Source: Ignavibacteria bacterium | GTDB taxonomy: Bacteria; Elusimicrobiota; Endomicrobiia; PHAN01 | Direction: 5' to 3' | Length of the DNA: 24,389 bases | Assembly: GCA_041694835.1 (NCBI GenBank) | Contig: JBGFRZ010000021.1 | Span: 1 to 24,389 of the forward strand | Part shown: positions 2,290 through 24,389 of the stretch, one piece after another | Position numbering within the stretch: the first letter of the stretch is position 1 | Layout: each line of letters starts with the position of its first letter | Made by a program: the position numbers and the translations under genes | The notes under the pieces: generated by a model | What the model was told of the DNA's origin: nothing | Seen by the model: only the letters and a program-made list of their open reading frames with translations | Databases searched by the model: none

Positions 2290-2322
2290 ACTGGATAGCA
2301 TCGGGCTCTTGAACTTACGGTC

Positions 2323-2351
2323 TTGATTTTTTATTAAAAATTTTGTTTAAT
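2323..2351 (+). promoter_or_regulatory. Putative sigma70 promoter of the rib operon
   Basis: TTGATT (2323-2328), a 17-nt spacer, then TTTAAT (2346-2351). This places the start about 2358, just 5' of riboswitch P1. Confidence 0.45.
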
Positions 2352-2396
2352 ATATTGATGCTCTTCGGGGCGGGGTGAAAATCCCCACTGGCGGTT

Positions 2397-2468
2397 CGCC
2401 TCGTTAGAGAACGCCGCGCCTTTAGGCACGACTTCAGTCGCTTGAGGCGACTTTCCTCTAACGGGGTC
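2397..2468. mobile_element. Palindromic-end element (CCCCGTTAGA/TCTAACGGGG family), copy 1, in the riboswitch P3 loop
   Basis: Ends cgcctcgttagag ... ctctaacggggtc, flanked by TT and AA. Core 2402-2467 is identical to 2536-2601. Confidence 0.8.
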
Positions 2469-2530
2469 AAAGTCCGCGAGCTTTGACATTACGTCGGGGC
2501 CGAATCTGTGCAATTCAGATACCAACGGTT

Positions 2531-2602
2531 CATCCCGTTAGAGAACGCCGCGCCTTTAGGCACGACTTCAGTCGCTTGAGGCGACTTTCCTCTAACGGGG
2601 TT
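2531..2602. mobile_element. Palindromic-end element, copy 2, in the riboswitch P6 loop
   Basis: Ends catcccgttagag ... ctctaacggggtt, flanked by TT and AA. The 66-bp core is identical to copy 1. Confidence 0.8.
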
Positions 2603-2666
2603 AAAGTCCGGATGGAAGAAGAGAGTGCGTCCGACGTATATCTGCCGCGATTGTTGCAAAGAAATT

Positions 2667-2700
2667 ACCCCGAAGATATTTCTTCGGGGTTTTTTATTTT
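2667..2700 (+). terminator. Intrinsic terminator, expression platform of the FMN riboswitch
   Basis: ACCCCGAAGA-tatt-TCTTCGGGGT followed by a T-run. The 5' arm CCCCGAAGA is complementary to the aptamer 5' strand TCTTCGGGG (2362-2370), giving an antiterminator. Confidence 0.92.
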
Positions 2701-2786
2701 ACCCCGTCAGAAATTATGAAGCGCTTTAAGAAGAAATTAAAAGTTTCTCTGAACATCACAAACCATAGGAGATTTCTAACGGGGTT
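2700..2786. mobile_element. Palindromic-end element, copy 3 (different interior), between the terminator and the ribD start
   Basis: accccgtcagaaat (2701-2714) ... atttctaacggggt (2772-2785), a 13/14 inverted match. Confidence 0.75.
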
Positions 2787-2787
2787 T

Positions 2788-3867
2788 ATGGCAAAAGAAA
2801 ATCTTGAAAAATATATGAAAATGGCGCTCAACCTTGCAAAAAAAGGAGATGGTAAAGTTGAACCCAATCCTTATGTAGGTTGCGTCATTGTTAAAAACAA
2901 AAGAGTCGTTTCGGCGGGATATCATAAATTTTTCGGTGGTCCTCATGCGGAGGTTTTGGCGATAAAAAAATTAAAAAGAACCCCGCAACTTCTTAAAGGT
3001 TCAACTTTATTTGTAAATCTCGAGCCTTGTTGCCACACAAACAAGAAAACGCCACCATGCGTTCCGCTGATATTGCAGTCGGGCATTAGCGCGGTTGTAA
3101 TCGGAATAAAAGATCCGAACTTTGATGTTAATGGCAAAGGGATAAGACGCTTGAAAGCGGGAGGCTTAAAGTGTAAAATTGGAGTCATGGAAAACGAAGC
3201 GAAAGAATTAAATAAAGTTTATATAAAAAATATCACAAAAAAAATGCCGTATATTATAATGAAATCGGCGATGACGCTCGACGGAAAGATAGCCACAAAG
3301 ACGGGTGATTCGAAGTGGATATCGTCGGCGATGTCGCGAAAATATGTCCACAAACTGAGAACATCCGTAGATGCCATTTTGGTCGGAGTGGAAACAATAA
3401 TAAATGACGACCCGCTACTTGATTCGCATGGTTTAGGTAGAGACCCGTTGCGAATTGTTATTGACCCCGATTTCAGGATACCAAAAAATTCAAAAGTTAT
3501 GAGTGATAACGGAAGAACACTCATCGTCACGTCGAAAAAATCCGCGTCATCAAAAAAAGAAATCCTCAGTATAAACTCGAAGAATGGTATTATTGATTTT
3601 AAAATTTTGCTTGGTAAACTTTATGAAAAAGGAATAAATAATATTCTCATTGAGGGCGGCGGAACGACGAATTGGAATGCCATAAAATCAGGTGTTGTCG
3701 ACGAGGTTCTGTTTTTCATCGCTCCCAAAATCGTGGGAGGAATTGACGCAAAGACGGCTATTGAGGGTGAAGGGATTAAAGAAGTTTCGAAAGCCATAAA
3801 GATAGTGATGGCGGAGAGTTTCAATATCGGCGGCGATATAGTTATAAAGGGGAAAGTTAGTAGGTAG
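2788..3867 (+). CDS. ribD: Bifunctional diaminohydroxyphosphoribosylaminopyrimidine deaminase / reductase
   Basis: PNPYVGCVIV, HAE, LEPCCH..KTPPC zinc motifs, TLDGKIAT, LIEGGG. Start placed at ATG 2788 because the upstream 2716 extension is repeat-derived. Confidence 0.95.
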   Translation: MAKENLEKYMKMALNLAKKGDGKVEPNPYVGCVIVKNKRVVSAGYHKFFGGPHAEVLAIKKLKRTPQLLKGSTLFVNLEPCCHTNKKTPPCVPLILQSGISAVVIGIKDPNFDVNGKGIRRLKAGGLKCKIGVMENEAKELNKVYIKNITKKMPYIIMKSAMTLDGKIATKTGDSKWISSAMSRKYVHKLRTSVDAILVGVETIINDDPLLDSHGLGRDPLRIVIDPDFRIPKNSKVMSDNGRTLIVTSKKSASSKKEILSINSKNGIIDFKILLGKLYEKGINNILIEGGGTTNWNAIKSGVVDEVLFFIAPKIVGGIDAKTAIEGEGIKEVSKAIKIVMAESFNIGGDIVIKGKVSR

Positions 3868-3918: not shown

Positions 3919-4551
3919 ATGTTCACTGGAATAATCGAAGACATTGGTGTTCTTGAAAAAATAGACGATTCGCGATGTGTTGTTGCGACGAAGCTAAAGG
4001 ACATCAAAATCGGCGATAGCATTTCCGTCAACGGCATTTGTCTGACGGTTTCTGTTTTTTCGCCTTTAACCCCTATCAGCCGCCTTTTAACATTCGATAT
4101 TTCGGAAGAAACATTAAACAGGACCGCTCTCAAGAATTTAAAAAAAGGCGATATGATCAATCTCGAACGGGCGATGAAATACGACGGCAGATTCGGAGGC
4201 CATATTGTTTCCGGCCACGTGGACACAACCGGCAGGATTGAATCCGTCAAAAAACACGGGAATTCGGTTTTGGTCAGCATAAAATCGCCGCTTGAACATA
4301 TAATCGAAAAGGGTTCCGTTGCGATAGACGGCATAAGTTTAACCGTTACATCGCTCGACGAAAATAATTCAACTTTCGATGTTTCTGCGATTCCTCACAC
4401 CATGGCTTGCACAAATCTCAAGCATGCCCGCGCCGGACGAATCGTGAACATAGAGTTCGATATATTGGCAAAATACATCGAAAAGTTTTCGGTTAAAAAA
4501 GAGTTCAAAAAAATAACAAAGGAGTTTTTAAAAAATGCCGGCTTCATCTGA
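3919..4551 (+). CDS. ribE: Riboflavin synthase (alpha chain; RibE/RibC)
   Basis: N-terminal MFTGII, GDSISVNGICLTV, NLERA, GGHIVSGHVD, KGSVAIDGISLTV, VNIEFD. Confidence 0.96.
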   Translation: MFTGIIEDIGVLEKIDDSRCVVATKLKDIKIGDSISVNGICLTVSVFSPLTPISRLLTFDISEETLNRTALKNLKKGDMINLERAMKYDGRFGGHIVSGHVDTTGRIESVKKHGNSVLVSIKSPLEHIIEKGSVAIDGISLTVTSLDENNSTFDVSAIPHTMACTNLKHARAGRIVNIEFDILAKYIEKFSVKKEFKKITKEFLKNAGFI

Positions 4552-5755
4552 AAAATTCAGCTCGATCAAAGAAGCGATTGCAGATATCAAAAAAGGAAAA
4601 ATCATAGTGGTAGTTGACGATCCATCGAGAGAGAACGAGGGAGATCTTGTCTGTGCCGCCTCGGCGGCGGGATTCGAAGCGATAAATTTTATGGCAAAAT
4701 TTGGCCGCGGACTCATCTGCGTTCCAATGCTCCCCGAACGTCTGGATGCCCTGGGTTTGAACCCAATGGTGGAAAGTCCCGAAGAACTTAAAGAGGCGGC
4801 GTTTACTGTTTCGGTCGATGCAAAAAAAAATGTGACGACAGGCATTTCCGCACACGACAGGGCGGTGACGATAAAAACGCTTATCGACGGAAAGACAAAA
4901 CCAGACGATATTGTTAAACCAGGACATGTTTTTCCTTTAAGATACAAAAACGGCGGTGTATTGGTGCGAGCTGGACACACGGAAGCCTCTGTCGACCTGG
5001 CGCGTCTTGCAGGCCTTTACCCCGCGGGGGTCATATGCGAGATAATGAACGAAGATGGTACAATGGCCCGCCTGCCTCAGCTTTTCAAATTTTCAAAAAA
5101 GCACAGATTGAAGTTGGTCACGATAACGGATCTTATCGAGCACAGAAGAAGACATGAAAAACTTGTAAAAAAACTCATAGTCGTCAAACTCCCTACGAAA
5201 TACGGCGAGTTTGAACTTTACCTCTACGAGGATACGGTTAAAATGGAGCATCACATCGCGCTTGTCAAAGGTGCCGTATACGGCAAGAAAGATGTTTTAG
5301 TAAGGGTTCATTCATCATGCACGACGGGCGACATTTTTCACTCTTTAAGATGCGACTGCGGCGAACAACTTGAGAAGGCGCTTTCAAAAATAGAAAAAGA
5401 GAAATCGGGTGTTTTGCTCTATATGCATCAGGAAGGTCGCGGAATCGGACTCAAAAACAAAATGTTGGCTTATCACCTTCAGGAAAAAGGCCTCGATACC
5501 GTCGACGCCAACGTCGCTCTCGGCTTCGCTGCGGATCTGCGGGACTACGGAATAGGCGCGCAAATCCTTTCCGACCTGGGACTGACGAATATCCGTCTTC
5601 TTACAAACAACCCGAGAAAGATAATAGGACTTGAGGGCTATGGTCTCACAGTGTCAAAAAGGATACCTCTTATGGTTTCAGCGAAGTCGCATTTCGCGAA
5701 AAAATATATGCATACGAAAATAAAAAAACTTGGTCACCATTTAGTGGTTGAGTGA
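4535..5755 (+). CDS. ribBA: Bifunctional DHBP synthase / GTP cyclohydrolase II
   Basis: RENEGDL, TTGISAHDRA, PGHVFPL, RAGHTEA, VRVHSSC, RCDCGEQL, QEGRGIGL, LLTNNP. AAGGAG RBS at 4519-4524. Confidence 0.97.
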   Translation: MPASSEKFSSIKEAIADIKKGKIIVVVDDPSRENEGDLVCAASAAGFEAINFMAKFGRGLICVPMLPERLDALGLNPMVESPEELKEAAFTVSVDAKKNVTTGISAHDRAVTIKTLIDGKTKPDDIVKPGHVFPLRYKNGGVLVRAGHTEASVDLARLAGLYPAGVICEIMNEDGTMARLPQLFKFSKKHRLKLVTITDLIEHRRRHEKLVKKLIVVKLPTKYGEFELYLYEDTVKMEHHIALVKGAVYGKKDVLVRVHSSCTTGDIFHSLRCDCGEQLEKALSKIEKEKSGVLLYMHQEGRGIGLKNKMLAYHLQEKGLDTVDANVALGFAADLRDYGIGAQILSDLGLTNIRLLTNNPRKIIGLEGYGLTVSKRIPLMVSAKSHFAKKYMHTKIKKLGHHLVVE

Positions 5756-5787: not shown

Positions 5788-6258
5788 ATGGGTAAAGTTT
5801 TTGAAGGGATGATGGACGCCAGGGGAAAGAAGTTCGGGCTCGTTGTTTCTCGTTTCAACGATTTCATCACGCGGAAGCTCCTTGACGGCGCCACGGATTC
5901 GCTGATGCGACACGGCGCCGATGATAAAAACATCGAAGTCGCTTTTGTCCCGGGCTCTTTTGAAATTCCATCGGTTGCAAAAAAAATGGCGAAAAGCAAT
6001 CGATACGACGCTGTGATATGTCTCGGGAGCGTCATAAAAGGCGACACCCCGCACTTCGACTACATCGCTTCCGAGGTCTCGAAGGGGGTGGCGCAACTTT
6101 CTCTTGAAAGTGAGGTCCCCGTAATTTTCGGCGTTATAACAGCCGATTCGCTTGAGCAGGCCATCGAGCGTGCGGGAACAAAGCAGGGCAACAAAGGAAA
6201 AGACGCCGCCGATACGGCCATAGAGATGGCGAATTTATACGAAAATTTGGTAAAATAA
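5788..6258 (+). CDS. ribH: 6,7-dimethyl-8-ribityllumazine synthase
   Basis: [40 protein letters not shown]. Strong AAGGAGG RBS. Confidence 0.97.
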
Positions 6259-6264
6259 AACATA

Positions 6265-6336
6265 GTGGCTCGTTGTTCGTGACTCGTTGCTCGTGATTTG
6301 TTTTCCTAGAGTCACCAGTCACGAGCAACCAATCAC
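6265..6336. repeat. Inverted pair of heptamer arrays (GTKRCTC)n / (GAGYMAC)n
   Basis: gtggctc gttgttc gtgactc gttgctc gtga ... gagtcac cagtcac gagcaac caatcac, between ribH and nusB. Confidence 0.75.
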
Positions 6337-6340
6337 TTCT

Positions 6341-8760
<2,420 letters not shown>

Positions 8761-11247: not shown

Positions 11248-12755
11248 AAAAAAGGGTTCTGATAAGCGTTTACGACAAAAGCGGTATAGTTGAATTAGGG
11301 AAGGGGCTATCGTCGCTTGGTTATGAGATAGTGGCCACAGGGGGGAGCTGCGATGTATTAAGAAAAGCGAGGATAAACGTTGTCGAAGTTTCCAAAATTA
11401 CCGGTTTTCCGGAGGTTTTAGATGGACGAGTGAAAACGCTCCATCCCGCCATCCACAGCGGGATATTGGCTAAAAGAAATAAGAAGCATCTATCCGAGAT
11501 AAAGAGGCAAAAAATATCGCCGATCGATATTGTGATAGTTAATCTATATCCATTTGAGGAAAAACCGTCCGTTGAAAACATAGATATCGGAGGGGTGTCG
11601 TTGCTTCGTTCAGCCGCTAAAAATCACGAGAGCGTCCTTGCCGTATGCTCGAAGGAAGATTACAAATCCGTCATTGACGGTTTGCGAAAAGGGGCAATAA
11701 CAAAAGATTTTAGAAAACATCTTGCCGCGAAAGCATTTAATCACATCTCATATTATGATGCTCTGATATCGCGTTCGCTCGGATATCTTGAGGATTTTCC
11801 GTCTAAAAAGGTAATTGTGTTGAAAAATATCGGCACATTAAGATACGGAGAGAACCCGCACCAGCGCGCCTCTATATATGTTTTGCCGAATGAGGAAGGT
11901 CGTCCTGGCGCCATGAGACAATTACAGGGGAAAGAATTGTCATATAACAATTATATAGATTTGGATGCTGCGTACAATCTTGTGTGCGAATTCAAAGAGC
12001 CGAGCTGTGCGATAATAAAACATACAAATCCTTGCGGCGTCGCTTCAGATAAAGACGCGTTTACGGCATACATAAATGCGTTTTCCTGCGACACCGTTTC
12101 TGCTTTCGGAGGAATCGTCGCTTTCAATAAAACTGTCGATAAAAAAACCGCCAAAGAGGTGACAAAAACATTTGCGGAATGTGTGATAGCGCCCGCGTAC
12201 GCTAAAGATGCCATAAGAATCTTCTCAGCGAAAGAGGACCTGCGCGTTCTCGCCACCCCGTTGTTCGAAAGCGACCGAAAATCAATGGAATTACGAACCA
12301 TAAGCGGCGGTGTTCTTCTACAAGAGCGCGATTCGATAACTTACGGTGCGCTTGAATGCGTGACATCCCAAAAACCATCGAAGGAGGCGATGAAGTCGCT
12401 GAAGTTCGCAATGACGGTCGCAAAATATGTCAAATCAAACGCGATAATCCTTGCTCTTGGGAGTAGAACAGTTGGGATTGGAGCTGGACAGATGTCCCGT
12501 ATAGATGCGTTGAAAATCGCTTCGATGAAAATGACAACGTGCGTTCAGTCGCTTCGTGGACAGATAGAAAAGCCGCTCGTCATGGCGAGCGACGCTTTTT
12601 TCCCTTTCGACGATGTCGTTCATGAGGCGTATAAAATAGGTGTGAAAGCGATAATACAGCCCGGCGGCTCTATAAGGGACGGCGACTCCAAAGAGGCATG
12701 CAACGGACTCGGCATTTCGATGATATTCACGGGCATAAGACATTTCAGACACTAG
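11244..12755 (+). CDS. purH: Bifunctional AICAR transformylase / IMP cyclohydrolase
   Basis: LISVYDK, GRVKTLHP, ENIDIGG, LRYGENPHQ, KHTNPCG, KSNAI, GAGQMSR, ASDAFFPF, IQPGGS, RHFRH C-terminus. Start ATG 11244. Confidence 0.98.
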   Translation: MKKRVLISVYDKSGIVELGKGLSSLGYEIVATGGSCDVLRKARINVVEVSKITGFPEVLDGRVKTLHPAIHSGILAKRNKKHLSEIKRQKISPIDIVIVNLYPFEEKPSVENIDIGGVSLLRSAAKNHESVLAVCSKEDYKSVIDGLRKGAITKDFRKHLAAKAFNHISYYDALISRSLGYLEDFPSKKVIVLKNIGTLRYGENPHQRASIYVLPNEEGRPGAMRQLQGKELSYNNYIDLDAAYNLVCEFKEPSCAIIKHTNPCGVASDKDAFTAYINAFSCDTVSAFGGIVAFNKTVDKKTAKEVTKTFAECVIAPAYAKDAIRIFSAKEDLRVLATPLFESDRKSMELRTISGGVLLQERDSITYGALECVTSQKPSKEAMKSLKFAMTVAKYVKSNAIILALGSRTVGIGAGQMSRIDALKIASMKMTTCVQSLRGQIEKPLVMASDAFFPFDDVVHEAYKIGVKAIIQPGGSIRDGDSKEACNGLGISMIFTGIRHFRH

Positions 12756-13092
12756 TGCTCTGTGCCATAAATAATTGACATTTTGCATGAGCGATTTTGG
12801 AGCGAAACAAAGAACGAGGAGTGAAGCATACCCTCTGTGGTATGTGAGCGACGAGTGATGAAGTTGTAGCCCAAAAGCGCCGTGCCCTTCGGGGTTCGTC
12901 ATCTTTGGGGCATTCTTAAGTCACTCCTCGCTTATGTAGCACTGCGGCTACACCGCACTCGTCGTTCCTTTCACCCCGTTAGATATTCAAAGTCGAATGG
13001 AATGAACACTGTTAGGTATCAATTATCTAACGGGGCGAACTGCCCTCAAATCTGACGAACCAAAATGCTCAACTATTTATGGCACAGAGCAC
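12755..13092. mobile_element. Non-coding MITE-like element with terminal inverted repeats and TA duplication
   Basis: TA|gtgctctgtgccataaataattga ... tcaactatttatggcacagagcac|TA (23/24 inverted match). No transposase ORF; internal hairpins. Confidence 0.85.
12972..13037. mobile_element. Palindromic-end element, copy 4, nested in the MITE
   Basis: tt|caccccgttagata ... tatctaacggggcg|aa; interior unrelated to copies 1-3. Confidence 0.8.
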
Positions 13093-13096
13093 TAAT

Positions 13097-13498
13097 ATGA
13101 AAAAATTCGATGAGCTTGTCCGGGTTTTCGATAAACTGCATTCAAAGAACGGTTGCAAGTGGGACAAATCGCAGACCCACGAAAGTCTTTTGAAATATCT
13201 GAAAGAAGAGACGAAAGAATTCATAGATGCCGTAAACTCCGGAAATTCGCATCACATGGCAGAAGAGCTCGGAGACATCCTTCTTCAGATTATGTTTCAC
13301 GCTCAGATAGCTAAAAAAAACAAAGAATTCGATGTAGAGGATGTCATCGTTCTTCTCATAAAGAAGCTAAAAAGACGACATCCGCATGTTTTTGCCGCAA
13401 AATCTCAAGAATCTCTGATTCGGGGTAAGAAAATTAAGTTAATAATAGCAAATTGGCGCAGAATAAAGAAGACGGAAAGATTGAAGCATGGCAAATAA
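13097..13498 (+). CDS. mazG: Short single-domain MazG nucleotide pyrophosphohydrolase
   Basis: GCKWDKSQTHESL, EETKE, EELGDILLQIMFHAQIA, KLKRRHPHVF. Start ATG 13097; the 13079 ATG lies in the MITE end. Confidence 0.9.
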   Translation: MKKFDELVRVFDKLHSKNGCKWDKSQTHESLLKYLKEETKEFIDAVNSGNSHHMAEELGDILLQIMFHAQIAKKNKEFDVEDVIVLLIKKLKRRHPHVFAAKSQESLIRGKKIKLIIANWRRIKKTERLKHGK

Positions 13499-16370: not shown

Positions 16371-18047
16371 ATGCTATCTTCCATTCATTTAAAAAACTAC
16401 ATTCTAATCGACAACCTTAATATAGAATTCGCCGACGGGCTGAACATATTTACGGGAGAAACCGGCGCCGGTAAGTCCATAATATTTGACGCCGTCGGCA
16501 TACTTCTTGGCGACAAAATCACACAAGGGATAATAAGAAAGGGCGCGAACCACTGCTCGGTATCCGGGGTGTTTTTGGTTGAAAAAAATCCGGATGCCTT
16601 GAAGCTTTTGAGTGAAAGAGGGATAGATGCCTCTGAAGGCCAGATCATAATAAGGCGCGAGACTGACTCGGGCGGGAAAAGCCGATGCTTCATAAACGAC
16701 GAAATCGTTTCGGTTAACTTTCTTTCCGAGCTCGGCTATTTTCTGCTCGACATACACGGGCAAAATCAGCATCAGAGCCTGCTTAAACTTTCATATCAGA
16801 GGGATTTTCTCGACGGTTACGCCGGTCTTGAAGATGAATTGACGTCTTACAGGAAAATATACGATGCCTGGCAGGGTTTGAAATCGAAACTCGAATCTCT
16901 GAATATCAGCGTCCAGGAAAGAGAACGGCTCATAGACCTCTATAAGTTTCAGGTTGACGAAATAAAGTCGGCAAATCTTGCATCAGGAGACGAGGAATCG
17001 ATAAGGGAAAAACTGCCGCAAATGAAAAATCAGGGCAAACTAAAGGAAGTTGTCTCGGCGATGTGGGGTCGCGTGTATGAAGACGACGACTCGCTAACGG
17101 CAACACTCGGTAAAATCAGGGAGCTTATGGAGAAAGCGTCAACATACGGCGCTCCTTTCGAGAAGTACATTGATGTATTAAACGAGACGTTCTTGAAAAT
17201 CGACGAATTAAAGGACGGCATATCAGGATATCTTGACACAGTGGAAGGATTTGACGACAGAATGATAGACGAACTTATAACGAAGCTAGACAAAATAGAA
17301 AAGCTCAGGAAAAAATACGGTTCAACAATTGAAGAGATAAACGCGTATATGCATAAAGCGGAAACCAATCTGGAAAATCTTTGCATGAGCGACGATATAA
17401 GGAAAGACGTGGAGGGGGAACTTAAAAATTCGGAAAAAAAACTAAATGAAGCCGCCTCAAAAATTTCAAAGGAAAGAATCTCCGCCGCCGAAAAGCTTTC
17501 GAGCTCCGTCTTAAAAGAATTGAAAGATCTCGGCATGCCGAAGTCAAAGTTTATAGTCGGGATTGAGAAAGAGCAGACACCCGGGCCTTGTGGAAGGGAC
17601 AAGGTTGAGTTTTTTTTCTCGGCGAATCCGGGCGAAGACCCGAGGCCGCTCAAAGAGATAATTTCGGGCGGCGAAATGTCCCGCTTTATGCTCGCTTTGA
17701 AAACCGTCGAGTCGGGAAGTATCCCATCGCTTATGTTCGATGAGCTCGACGCTGGTTTGAGCGGCCCGATGGGGCAGACGGTCGGGAAAAAACTTCTTTG
17801 TCTTTCGGAAAAATCACAGGTGATATCGATTACGCATCTTCCTCAGATAGCGGCTTTCGCACGGAGGCATTTCGTCGTCGAGAAATCCGCCGAGAAAGAC
17901 AAAACAACGACTCGAATAAGATATCTCAAAAATGAAGAATCCGTGGATGAGATAGCCAGGATGCTCTCTGGTAGAAAAATCACGGATTCGGCGAAGCAAC
18001 ACGCCGAGGAGCTTGTAGAACAAGCACGCAGGGCTTCACCCCGTTAG
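16371..18047 (+). CDS. recN: DNA repair protein RecN
   Basis: Walker A TGETGAGKS, DIHGQ, coiled coil, SANPGE, SGGEMSR signature, FDELDAG Walker B, ITHLPQIAA. Confidence 0.97.
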   Translation: MLSSIHLKNYILIDNLNIEFADGLNIFTGETGAGKSIIFDAVGILLGDKITQGIIRKGANHCSVSGVFLVEKNPDALKLLSERGIDASEGQIIIRRETDSGGKSRCFINDEIVSVNFLSELGYFLLDIHGQNQHQSLLKLSYQRDFLDGYAGLEDELTSYRKIYDAWQGLKSKLESLNISVQERERLIDLYKFQVDEIKSANLASGDEESIREKLPQMKNQGKLKEVVSAMWGRVYEDDDSLTATLGKIRELMEKASTYGAPFEKYIDVLNETFLKIDELKDGISGYLDTVEGFDDRMIDELITKLDKIEKLRKKYGSTIEEINAYMHKAETNLENLCMSDDIRKDVEGELKNSEKKLNEAASKISKERISAAEKLSSSVLKELKDLGMPKSKFIVGIEKEQTPGPCGRDKVEFFFSANPGEDPRPLKEIISGGEMSRFMLALKTVESGSIPSLMFDELDAGLSGPMGQTVGKKLLCLSEKSQVISITHLPQIAAFARRHFVVEKSAEKDKTTTRIRYLKNEESVDEIARMLSGRKITDSAKQHAEELVEQARRASPR

Positions 18048-18427
18048 TGTGGTGTCACTAAGAGTTCTTTACATTTGAATCCCCGATAAAAGGGTTTTTT
18101 AACAATTTTTACTGACGAACAATCAAATGTTTCGCGAGATAATAAAAATGTATCTTTAACGGGTTGATTTTGTCTGCCAAAAGAGTTAAAATAAGGTAAT
18201 AGCCAAACAATTCGCACCAAACTAAAGAGAACCAAAAATGTTTGTGAAGCGGGATTTCGTGGAGCCACGCCTTAATAAACTAAAGTTGTAAGTAAAAATT
18301 TTGCGTGGCGAAACGTTAAGCGAACTTTAAGATATAAATTCATATATGTTCTCGTCGTGTGAGCGGTCCCGCAAACAAATATTTTTGGTGTGTTTTCATT
18401 GGCTATTACCTAAAATAAAAGTATCCG

Positions 18428-22155: not shown

Positions 22156-22284
22156 TCTTTCTCCTATGATAAAAACTAAGTTTTAATTAGGGTTCGCTGA
22201 CGCTTCGCTAAAATTCACTACGGAGGCGCAGAGAAAAAACACAGACGAGGTAGTGAGGCCTTAATGCCGCACTACTACTCCTTT

Positions 22285-22353
22285 ACCACGAAAACACGAA
22301 AGTTAGAAATCACGAAAAAAGTCCCCAATTTCGCGTTTTCGTGTCTTCGTGGT
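22285..22353. repeat. Inverted repeat built from 8-nt units (CACGAAAA)
   Basis: accacgaaaacacgaaa (22285-22301) ... tttcgtgtcttcgtggt (22337-22353), 16/17 match. Confidence 0.8.
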
Positions 22354-22473
22354 TTAGAGTTTTAATAACACATAACTCACATCTCCGTCGGTAATTTTCC
22401 CGATGTATCGGGATGAACCCTGCGCTCAATGGCTTTTATTTTATCATCGCTTTGTGGAGATACCGCCTTTCCT

Positions 22474-23931: not shown

Positions 23932-24002
23932 CGGGAGTGGAGGGATTTGAACCCCCAGTCCTGGTTTTGGAGACCAGTGGTTTGCCATTAACCGACACTC
24001 CC
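23932..24002 (-). tRNA. trnW: tRNA-Trp (CCA), 3' CCA not encoded
   Basis: Minus strand: GGGAGTG TC GGTT AATGGC AAACC A CTGGT CTCCAAA ACCAG GACT GGGGG TTCAAAT CCCTC CACTCCC G. Complete cloverleaf with G73. Confidence 0.96.
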
Positions 24003-24078: not shown

Positions 24079-24234
24079 TTATTTTGTTTCTTTATGCAGA
24101 GTGTGCTTGCCACAGTTGGAGCAGAATTTCTTCAGCTCTATCTTTTTTTCTCTCTTTTTCCCTACCGCATTATGGTAATTCCTGTTTTTGCAAACGGTAC
24201 ATGCAAACGTTATTATATGCCTGTTTTCTGTCAT
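24079..24234 (-). CDS. rpmG: 50S ribosomal protein L33, zinc-binding (C+) form; not in the ORF track
   Basis: Manual translation [51 protein letters not shown] (51 aa), two CxxC motifs, GGAG RBS, canonical position before tRNA-Trp/secE. Confidence 0.95.
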
Positions 24235-24253
24235 TTTATATTCACTCCGTAAT

Positions 24254-24369
24254 AGAAGGTAAAAGGTAAAAGGTTAAAGGTTAAAAGGTCGGCGGTGAAA
24301 AAACCATTTGCCGTCTCTCGCCTCTGCCCTCTGCTCTTGTGCCCTTGTGCTCTTGTGCCCTTGTGCTCT
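24254..24369. repeat. Heptamer/octamer tandem arrays upstream of rpmG
   Basis: agaaggt aaaaggt aaaaggt taaaggt taaaaggt (24254-24289); cctctgc cctctgc tcttgtgc ccttgtgc tcttgtgc ccttgtgc (24321-24366). Confidence 0.85.
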
Positions 24370-24389
24370 AATTTCTGTCCTCTCCCCTC

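Follow-up and report, generated by a model that had tools for sequence, protein, structure and literature searches.

Riboswitch aptamers are usually viewed as tightly constrained RNAs. Among bacterial MITEs, Correia/NEMIS and RUP are named examples. The FMN riboswitch (RF00050, the RFN element, including its P3a forms) lies upstream of riboflavin genes and combines a six-helix junction and its junction blocks with a terminator/antiterminator platform. Passages of Vicens et al. (PMC3201879) describe the P3a/L3a extension and the peripheral L2-L6 and L3-L5 contacts, and a passage of PMC2258182 states that the T-loops are "sometimes interrupted by an intervening helix". As to mobile DNA, bacterial MITEs are described as short, non-coding, many-copy elements with terminal inverted repeats and target-site duplication that form stable hairpins in transcripts (PMC10969869). 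Rickettsia palindromic elements (RPE) are small mobile palindromes that enter functional genes without destroying them, one being reported inside the R. bellii tmRNA gene (PMC1458961). A dispersed BOX repeat is co-transcribed in the riboswitch-controlled trp leader of pneumococcus, which still appears to regulate (passages of PMC3049150). In the freely readable literature on repeats and mobile elements, none was found inside a riboswitch aptamer.

The locus described here lies in a window of 24,389 nt (the whole stretch of DNA that was analysed, contig JBGFRZ010000021.1). In our judgement it is probably a functional, transcription-terminating FMN riboswitch in which L3 and L6 each hold the same mobile palindromic element. 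It shares junction, platform and gene context with RF00050, and differs from it in length (268 nt, compared to 119-209 nt for 77 matches in 76 other genomes; 77 of 122 class genomes have an FMN match), in the 68-nt element present in both L3 and L6, and in scoring below the Rfam gathering threshold. The insertion points are equivalent in the two loops, and the arm positions agree with the P3a/L3a, L2-L6 and L3-L5 contacts in the passages of PMC3201879. Unlike RPE, the element belongs to another family and host, and two symmetry-related copies occupy one aptamer; the passages of PMC1458961 contain no riboswitch case. The BOX repeat, in contrast, sits between two complete T-box elements, outside any aptamer (PMC3049150). 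What is new, as judged from sequence, is the assignment of each arm to a dispersed, MITE-like family of palindromes. The relevant features of the window are as follows.

2322-2355, plus strand: promoter-like block (CTTGATTT...TTTAATATA), conserved with two genomes of the same family (G001, G002); putative promoter
2359-2626, plus strand: FMN riboswitch aptamer with two inserted arms, 268 nt (RF00050 match, helices parsed by hand)
2399-2466, plus strand: arm 1, palindromic element in L3, ends CCTCGTTAGA...TCTAACGGGG, 86.5 bits to subfamily model R1
2533-2600, plus strand: arm 2, the same element in L6, ends TCCCGTTAGA...TCTAACGGGG, 84.5 bits to R1
2667-2700, plus strand: intrinsic terminator, stem 2667-2690 followed by a U tract (terminator scan: 10 pairs, tail TTTTTATTTT)
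2702-2784, plus strand: third element, of another subfamily, between terminator and ribD start, with TTTA duplicated
2788-3867, plus strand: ribD, first gene of the operon (NCBIfam TIGR00326, 1.6e-100)
3919-4551, plus strand: ribE (NCBIfam match)
4535-5755, plus strand: ribBA (NCBIfam match)
5788-6258, plus strand: ribH (NCBIfam match)
6287-6766, plus strand: nusB (NCBIfam match)
23932-24002, minus strand: tRNA gene, 63.1 bits

The operon order is thus ribD-ribE-ribBA-ribH-nusB, the NCBIfam matches other than that of ribD being NF006767, NF006803, TIGR00114 and TIGR01951. A consensus promoter scan made no call at the 2322-2355 block.

The two loops lie in an 85-nt direct repeat (2392-2476 and 2526-2610) with 81 of 85 positions identical (95%), as found by a repeat search of the window. 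BLAST within the genome delimited a core of 100% identity, 2402-2467 and 2536-2601 (66 nt). The four mismatches (2398/2532, 2399/2533, 2401/2535 and 2468/2602) are all located toward the outer ends. The first-pass annotation, made from the sequence alone, had reported this repeat with the same values. It had also stated that excision of 2397-2468 and 2531-2602 restores CGGTT^AAAGTCCG at both sites and leaves an aptamer of normal size; the sequence bears this out, and the insert-free aptamer of ~124 nt falls within the 107-197 nt of 49 other class aptamers. The longest internal direct repeat in those 49 FMN aptamers is at most 12 nt, and the 66-nt exact repeat in the window aptamer is therefore far beyond chance. 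Identical paired insertions in other aptamers, named at first pass as counter-evidence, were found in none of the 49. That annotation had further proposed looking for reads that bridge both copies. A single 151-nt Logan contig from one public sequencing run maps to 2402-2552 with 0 differences, passing from the copy 1 core through the 3' strand of P3, P4, P5 and the 5' strand of P6 into the copy 2 core. Both copies are therefore on one molecule, and the twin repeat is not an assembly artefact. Note that the run (labelled groundwater metagenome, 0.42 share of sampled words) is the sole public run holding the stretch and may be the genome's own source sample, making the support read-level and non-independent; the twin-arm leader is known from one genome and one run.

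To place the arms, the aptamer was parsed by hand against the Rfam consensus, giving the following elements.

2361-2366 with 2618-2623, plus strand: P1
J1/2, plus strand: GGGGC
2372-2375 with 2383-2386, plus strand: P2 (hairpin 2372-2386)
2387-2391, plus strand: J2/3, ACUGG
2392-2394 with 2474-2476, plus strand: P3, CGG with CCG
J3/4, plus strand: CGA
2480-2487 with 2493-2500, plus strand: P4
J4/5, plus strand: CGA
2504-2508 with 2516-2520, plus strand: P5
2521-2525, plus strand: J5/6, ACCAA
2526-2528 with 2608-2610, plus strand: P6, CGG with CCG
J6/1, plus strand: GAUGGAA

P1 to P6 surround the junction in canonical order, and all 29 of the 29 pairs are standard or G.U. At the gathering score, a standard Rfam scan of the window returned a tRNA only and no RF00050. 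Below this score (66.2 bits), RF00050 matched with 25.2 bits in a permissive scan of the window and with 61.1 bits for 2357-2552 in a whole-genome search, the leader being the sole FMN match in the 1.9-Mb genome. Both sub-threshold alignments take a truncated or spurious route around one or both of the inserts. The threshold was missed only because of the inserts, as the model cannot span two of 72 nt; the missed score is a matter of a software threshold and no biological feature. Downstream of the aptamer, the 5' arm of the terminator (2668-2676) can pair with 2362-2370, in the 5' strand of P1 and J1/2; this antiterminator complementarity was read from the sequence. The same design occurs in four relatives (G001, G002, G009 and G006), and the distance from the 3' strand of P1 to the terminator is unaltered by the inserts. 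Judged by structure, core sequence, platform and context, the leader RNA is an FMN riboswitch. The initial identification is thus upheld by the six helices and junction blocks, the intrinsic terminator and the riboflavin operon downstream, and the view that terminator and antiterminator are intact by the terminator scan and the 2362-2370/2668-2676 complementarity.

For comparison of core and loops, 50 distinct aptamers, window included, were parsed with an anchor regex; the set comprised the 30 best-scoring class matches and 20 picked for length plus early relatives, and is enriched for long aptamers. The 49 other class aptamers share 63 columns with a conservation of at least 90%, and the window keeps 58 of these. 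The earlier statement that all conserved blocks are intact therefore stands for the helices and junction blocks and has to be qualified for five columns that differ, four of them compensated. These four form two tertiary or junction pairs. At J2/3 position 3 and J5/6 position 4, the 50 aptamers have C-G in 47, U-A in three (window, G012 and G010) and no mismatch. Between the 3' bulge of L3 and the base 3' of P5, C-G occurs in 44, U-A in three (window, G012 and G025), U.G in two and C.A in one; a passage of PMC2258182 predicts this tertiary pair from mutual information. On sequence comparison, the odd core bases are compensated variants and not damage. Since the insert-free G012 has them too, they predate the insertions and are mute on later selection.

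Relatives provide the empty sites. When their rib leaders were aligned, as had been suggested at first pass, L3 and L6 were found empty in two genomes of the same family (G001 and G002), in G012 and in others, with an L6 of 6-7 nt and a short L3. The L6 of G094 is exactly the empty-site L6 that the first-pass annotation had deduced. A scan of metagenomes for near relatives by RibD gave identities of at most 51%; of 80 metagenome ribD loci, none passed the anchor regex, and the comparison does not draw on them. The 50 parsed aptamers, a set enriched for long members, include 35 with an L6 of 6-7 nt and 14 with one of 21-45 nt; that of the window has 79 nt. Hairpin extensions are common in L2, L3 and L5 of the class as well, and they exit the loops at the same positions as the arms. 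In naturally extended class members (G053, G040, G060, G011 and G010), both loops can be extended in one aptamer, as here, with a helix that starts 4-5 nt past the 5' strand of P6 or P3 and is followed by 6-7 nt up to the 3' strand. These natural arms are short (19-45 nt of loop) and unlike between L3 and L6, whereas the window arms are identical. The natural L6/L3 extensions of G010 and G009 were considered as worn-down repeats and rejected: they have no other copy in their own genomes, whereas the window arms belong to a repeat family. Two smaller observations concern other loops. In G001 and G002 a GC-rich hairpin of ~25 nt lies inside L5 of the FMN riboswitch (L015 and L016), and the P4 loop of G012 (L043) has a ATCCCGAT...ATCGGGAT hairpin like the small palindromes within host elements.

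The arms are 68 nt long (72 nt with flank bases) and identical at 66 of 68 positions. Both copies form long hairpins, with folding energies of -34.6 and -34.7 kcal/mol (z -2.9 and -4.2). Three of the differences fall in the stem, G.U/A-U, C-G/U.G and U.G/C-G, and all of them preserve pairing, which is weak evidence of selection because they are transitions opposite G or U. The arm ends, bounded by CC(T/C)CGTTAGA...TCTAACGGGG, fit a family in which the ends CCCCGTTAGA...TCTAACGGGG are conserved while the interiors vary and are rich in hairpins; each arm departs from these ends by one C-to-T change. In the host genome, the exact arm 10-mer and its complement occur 100 times in 1.9 Mb (~2.4 expected), and 43 inward-facing paired elements of 53-123 nt were found on 30 contigs. 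These are small and dispersed, have terminal inverted repeats and contain no ORF; their flanks differ from copy to copy and they therefore represent separate loci. The interiors fall into several subfamilies, and minimal hairpins of 29 nt exist too. The arm interior has no third copy in the host genome.

Identical 4-nt direct flanks (such as TAAA, TGAA, CTCG, CGGA, TTGA and TTCA) were present at 18 of 41 non-duplicate elements, whereas shuffling the partners 5000 times gave 4.2 on average and 12 at most; palindromic flanks were present at none (4.4 expected). Paralogous copies on five contigs have a single CTCG where C54:3951 shows CTCG-element-CTCG. In a second filled/empty set, the 66 nt at 12971-13036 of the window have counterparts in C49 and C52 and are absent from C39, C28 and C64, with a junction at which the duplication is not clean. 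Direct flanks and filled/empty sites thus indicate a family that is, or once was, mobile and duplicates a 4-nt target. Of the origins offered at first pass, a palindromic element accordingly gains support from the dispersed family with its terminal inverted repeats and target duplications. A preference for hairpin loops as targets, taken as 4-mers unpaired under at least three spanning pairs, found no support: they account for 14 of 41 rebuilt empty sites, within the range of 40 control sets (mean 10.0, maximum 16). At the Rfam gathering score, the 36 loci around 39 other elements showed no other invaded structured RNA, only three tRNAs beside elements, with the reservation that an invaded RNA may score below gathering, as the FMN riboswitch does here.

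No Rfam family matched the elements in the window or in the loci around other elements, and no transposase lay between distant arm pairs in the host genome or in 80 foreign loci. Distant arm pairs, examined for an autonomous parent, enclose only Nuo51-like, ferredoxin, QueH and RuvB genes in the host and only isocitrate dehydrogenase, S3, TPR, POR and ComF-like genes in foreign loci. A link to the host's single Y1 (IS200/IS605/RAYT-type) transposase gene was discarded, as the nearest 3.3 kb around it are free of arm motifs. We therefore call the family MITE-like and not a proven MITE, no transposase with these ends having been found. Integron attC sites, whose core sites the arm hexamers resemble, were rejected by reading on account of the reversed stem polarity. 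A hammerhead-like core in the ~80-nt subfamily was likewise dismissed by reading, with one box in some copies and no consistent core.

The exact element pattern occurs 17 times in the host genome, in neither of two same-family genomes and in one of 38 other genomes of the class (G010). In a scan with one genome per species, at least 120 stretches had the family pattern; by record title, those listed belong to Patescibacteria groups, Saccharibacteria, Pirellulales and other Planctomycetes, Omnitrophota, Cloacimonadota, Deltaproteobacteria, Nitrospirota, Bacteroidales and others. Among the 83 matches in 80 of these loci, direct flank repeats of 4-5 nt and nested copies recur. Viral contigs hold two further stretches. 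The family differs from described bacterial MITEs in 10-nt ends that are invariant over many phyla while the interiors diverge widely, and in that no parent transposase was found. The closest relatives of the arms in other genomes are in G127, of the same phylum and another class (90% over 71 nt), and in L227, a Saccharibacteria record (~82%; 56 of 68 aligned columns, 37 of 48 in the interior); L154 and L221 also hold the arm subfamily. A covariance model of this subfamily gave 83-92 bits for six members and at most 40.7 bits for the rest in 620 kb. Its consensus fold has 27 pairs, four with compensatory changes, from five sequences only. Openly readable papers nowhere describe the end sequence as belonging to a repeat family, and the string matches listed were all unrelated uses. 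Nested copies are frequent in foreign loci (L150-L229, e.g., L151, L153 and L155), and in L182 (4971-5060) two arms directly enclose a whole tRNA gene, lengthening its acceptor stem.

The third element is flanked by TTTA at 2698-2701 and 2785-2788, where A2788 is the A of the ribD ATG. Its closest copy is C84:95837-95921 (86% over 87 nt). With it, three family members lie within 386 nt, compared to 0.009 expected by arithmetic from 43 elements in 1.9 Mb; this expectation uses the whole genome and should stay small when intergenic DNA alone is counted. Two side observations touch the start of ribD. An ATG at 2716, inside the third element, shares the ribD reading frame and would lengthen the protein by 24 residues. 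The family-type start at 2788 lies 3 nt past a 13-bp stem of that element, and initiation of translation might be influenced by this stem. Elsewhere, a 23-nt stretch at C60:542-564 matches window 2694-2716 (terminator tail and start of the third element) exactly. It lies at the 3' end of a histidine-kinase-like ORF, is followed by a diverged partner arm, and the element there seems to supply the end of that gene.

A mobile hairpin would have entered one loop first, and would then have reached the near-identical loop site CGGTT^AAAGTCCG 134 nt away, whether it transposed locally a second time or was copied from a template. Each element would fold on itself once transcribed and protrude as a P3a-like or P6a-like arm, leaving the loop where natural FMN riboswitches of the class have their optional helices. 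Neither the FMN pocket nor the six-helix junction would change, nor would the competition of P1, antiterminator and terminator, and the FMN-bound switch would probably still turn the rib operon off, like ordinary transcriptional OFF switches. Folding calculations bear on this proposal. The hand-parsed structure with two local arms has -100.8 kcal/mol. With P1-P6 enforced the energy is -109.0 kcal/mol, compared to -109.2 kcal/mol for the unconstrained minimum, a strand-swapped fold in which the 5' half of either arm pairs with the 3' half of the other, excluding P3 and P6. That fold is isoenergetic because the arms are identical. In co-transcriptional snapshots, the native fold prevails up to 2545 and the strand-swapped one from 2560 on. 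Function is plausible because hairpin extensions of L6 and L3 are natural in the class, and the compensated core pairs strengthen the case; we place the chance that the twin-arm switch works somewhat above even.

Several alternatives concern how two copies came to be present. That an assembler doubled a single real copy is highly improbable. The genome is a fragmented draft of 89 contigs, and depth was low (3) in the one run found, with the leader partly uncovered there; yet the Logan contig links both cores over P4-P5 with 0 differences, the copies have distinct flanks that fit their context (P3 or P6), and with one copy the aptamer would miss either the 3' strand of P3, P4, P5 and the 5' strand of P6, or a loop closure. 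A serious possibility, if one somewhat short of even, is that transposition hit one loop only and that gene conversion or template switching through the CGGTT and AAAGTCCG flanks then copied the arm into the other, possibly with continuing conversion that keeps the arm cores identical. The lack of a third genomic copy of the arm interior would fit, as would the distribution of the four differences, all in the outer 19 of 85 positions (chance ~0.0025 by arithmetic if evenly spread). The 4-nt flanks are TTCG (2395-2398) and TCAA (2467-2470) for arm 1, matching at 1 of 4 positions, and TTCA (2529-2532) and TTAA (2601-2604) for arm 2, matching at 3 of 4; between copies they agree at 6 of 8. As neither arm has a clean target duplication, simple double transposition is no more than a candidate, and flank likeness and end-located differences lean to copying with flanks or continuing conversion. 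Against copying, the shared flanks are merely 5 and 8 nt, short for homologous recombination, the family is demonstrably mobile, and three members within 386 nt fit local hopping or a hot spot. Family mobility and the third insertion nearby thus lean to local transposition into two near-identical targets.

Other alternatives concern function. The riboswitch may be disabled, with the antiterminator always winning and the rib operon constitutive, a recent and as yet undecayed wreck; this main rival reading we think unlikely but far from negligible. The cause would be that the arms, the strand-swapped misfold or both block the L3-L5 and L2-L6 contacts or the formation of P3 and P6. The strand-swapped fold is indeed the minimum, the Rfam score is under the cut-off, the third element beside the start codon shows a leader gathering insertions, and a constitutive biosynthetic operon might be tolerable. 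The 66-nt identity suggests that the event was recent, and core conservation can for that reason not prove function with the arms in place. A disabled switch is harder to reconcile with insertion points that are natural hairpin sites in 14 of 49 other aptamers (L6) and in many (L3), with arms that each fold locally ahead of the synthesis of the competing partner, and with the intact platform and 58 of 63 conserved columns. Pairing kept at 3 of 3 stem differences points the same way, though chance suffices for transitions opposite G or U. A very improbable further reading takes the arms as exapted modules, a conserved structured RNA that gives the leader a further role, such as a protein or RNase III stability site or pairing of an arm 5' half with the 3' half of the third element near the ribD RBS. 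The subfamily is 77-90% conserved in distant hosts with some compensatory pairs, and 2534-2549 is 81% complementary to 2768-2783; this complementarity, however, follows automatically from the shared terminal repeats, other copies lie at unrelated loci, the arm subfamily has no riboswitch context elsewhere, and nothing ties the element to flavin biology.

One aptamer here contains a mobile hairpin twice, at symmetry-related loops, and its ligand-binding core is apparently untouched; the locus illustrates how jumping hairpins can add arms to structured RNA. If the twin-arm switch is functional, as we favour, the leader would be a natural experiment on the modularity of the FMN fold, on the tolerance of the L2-L6 and L3-L5 contacts for large arms, and on the folding hazard of identical arms through strand swapping. 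More tentatively, and rather doubtfully at this stage, the locus may be a case of optional riboswitch helices caught being born, together with a new structured repeat family with invariant 10-nt ends. Such a reading would cover P3a and the extensions of L2, L5 and L6 that are common in the class: palindromes would land at helix-tolerant loop positions and later erode into lineage-specific arms, supplied by a repeat family of many bacterial phyla. A repeat family with invariant ends is in any case revealed in many uncultured phyla. For annotation, covariance models miss riboswitches with repeat insertions, here the genome's only FMN match.

Further family members and repeats were noted in passing. 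Two members lie in tRNA gene spacers (C79:21882-21962 and C84:95838-95919), the former stopping exactly one base short of a tRNA gene. The filled/empty set at 12971-13036 is part of a larger repeat (~350 nt, window 12753-13103) in the intergenic region that separates purH from mazG, in which the element occupies 12974-13035; the larger repeat matched neither Pfam nor Rfam. It recurs on at least six other contigs (C52, C49, C28, C39 and C64, and in diverged form C54 and C66), and its copies bear the palindromic element at two different positions, giving filled and empty sites. A solitary element arm is present at 18039. Other dispersed repeats in the window are located at 22281-22405, 18180-18420, 18068-18130 and 24222-24389; they include a unit of ~117-125 nt with eight other copies, and single matches to C76, C63 and C35.
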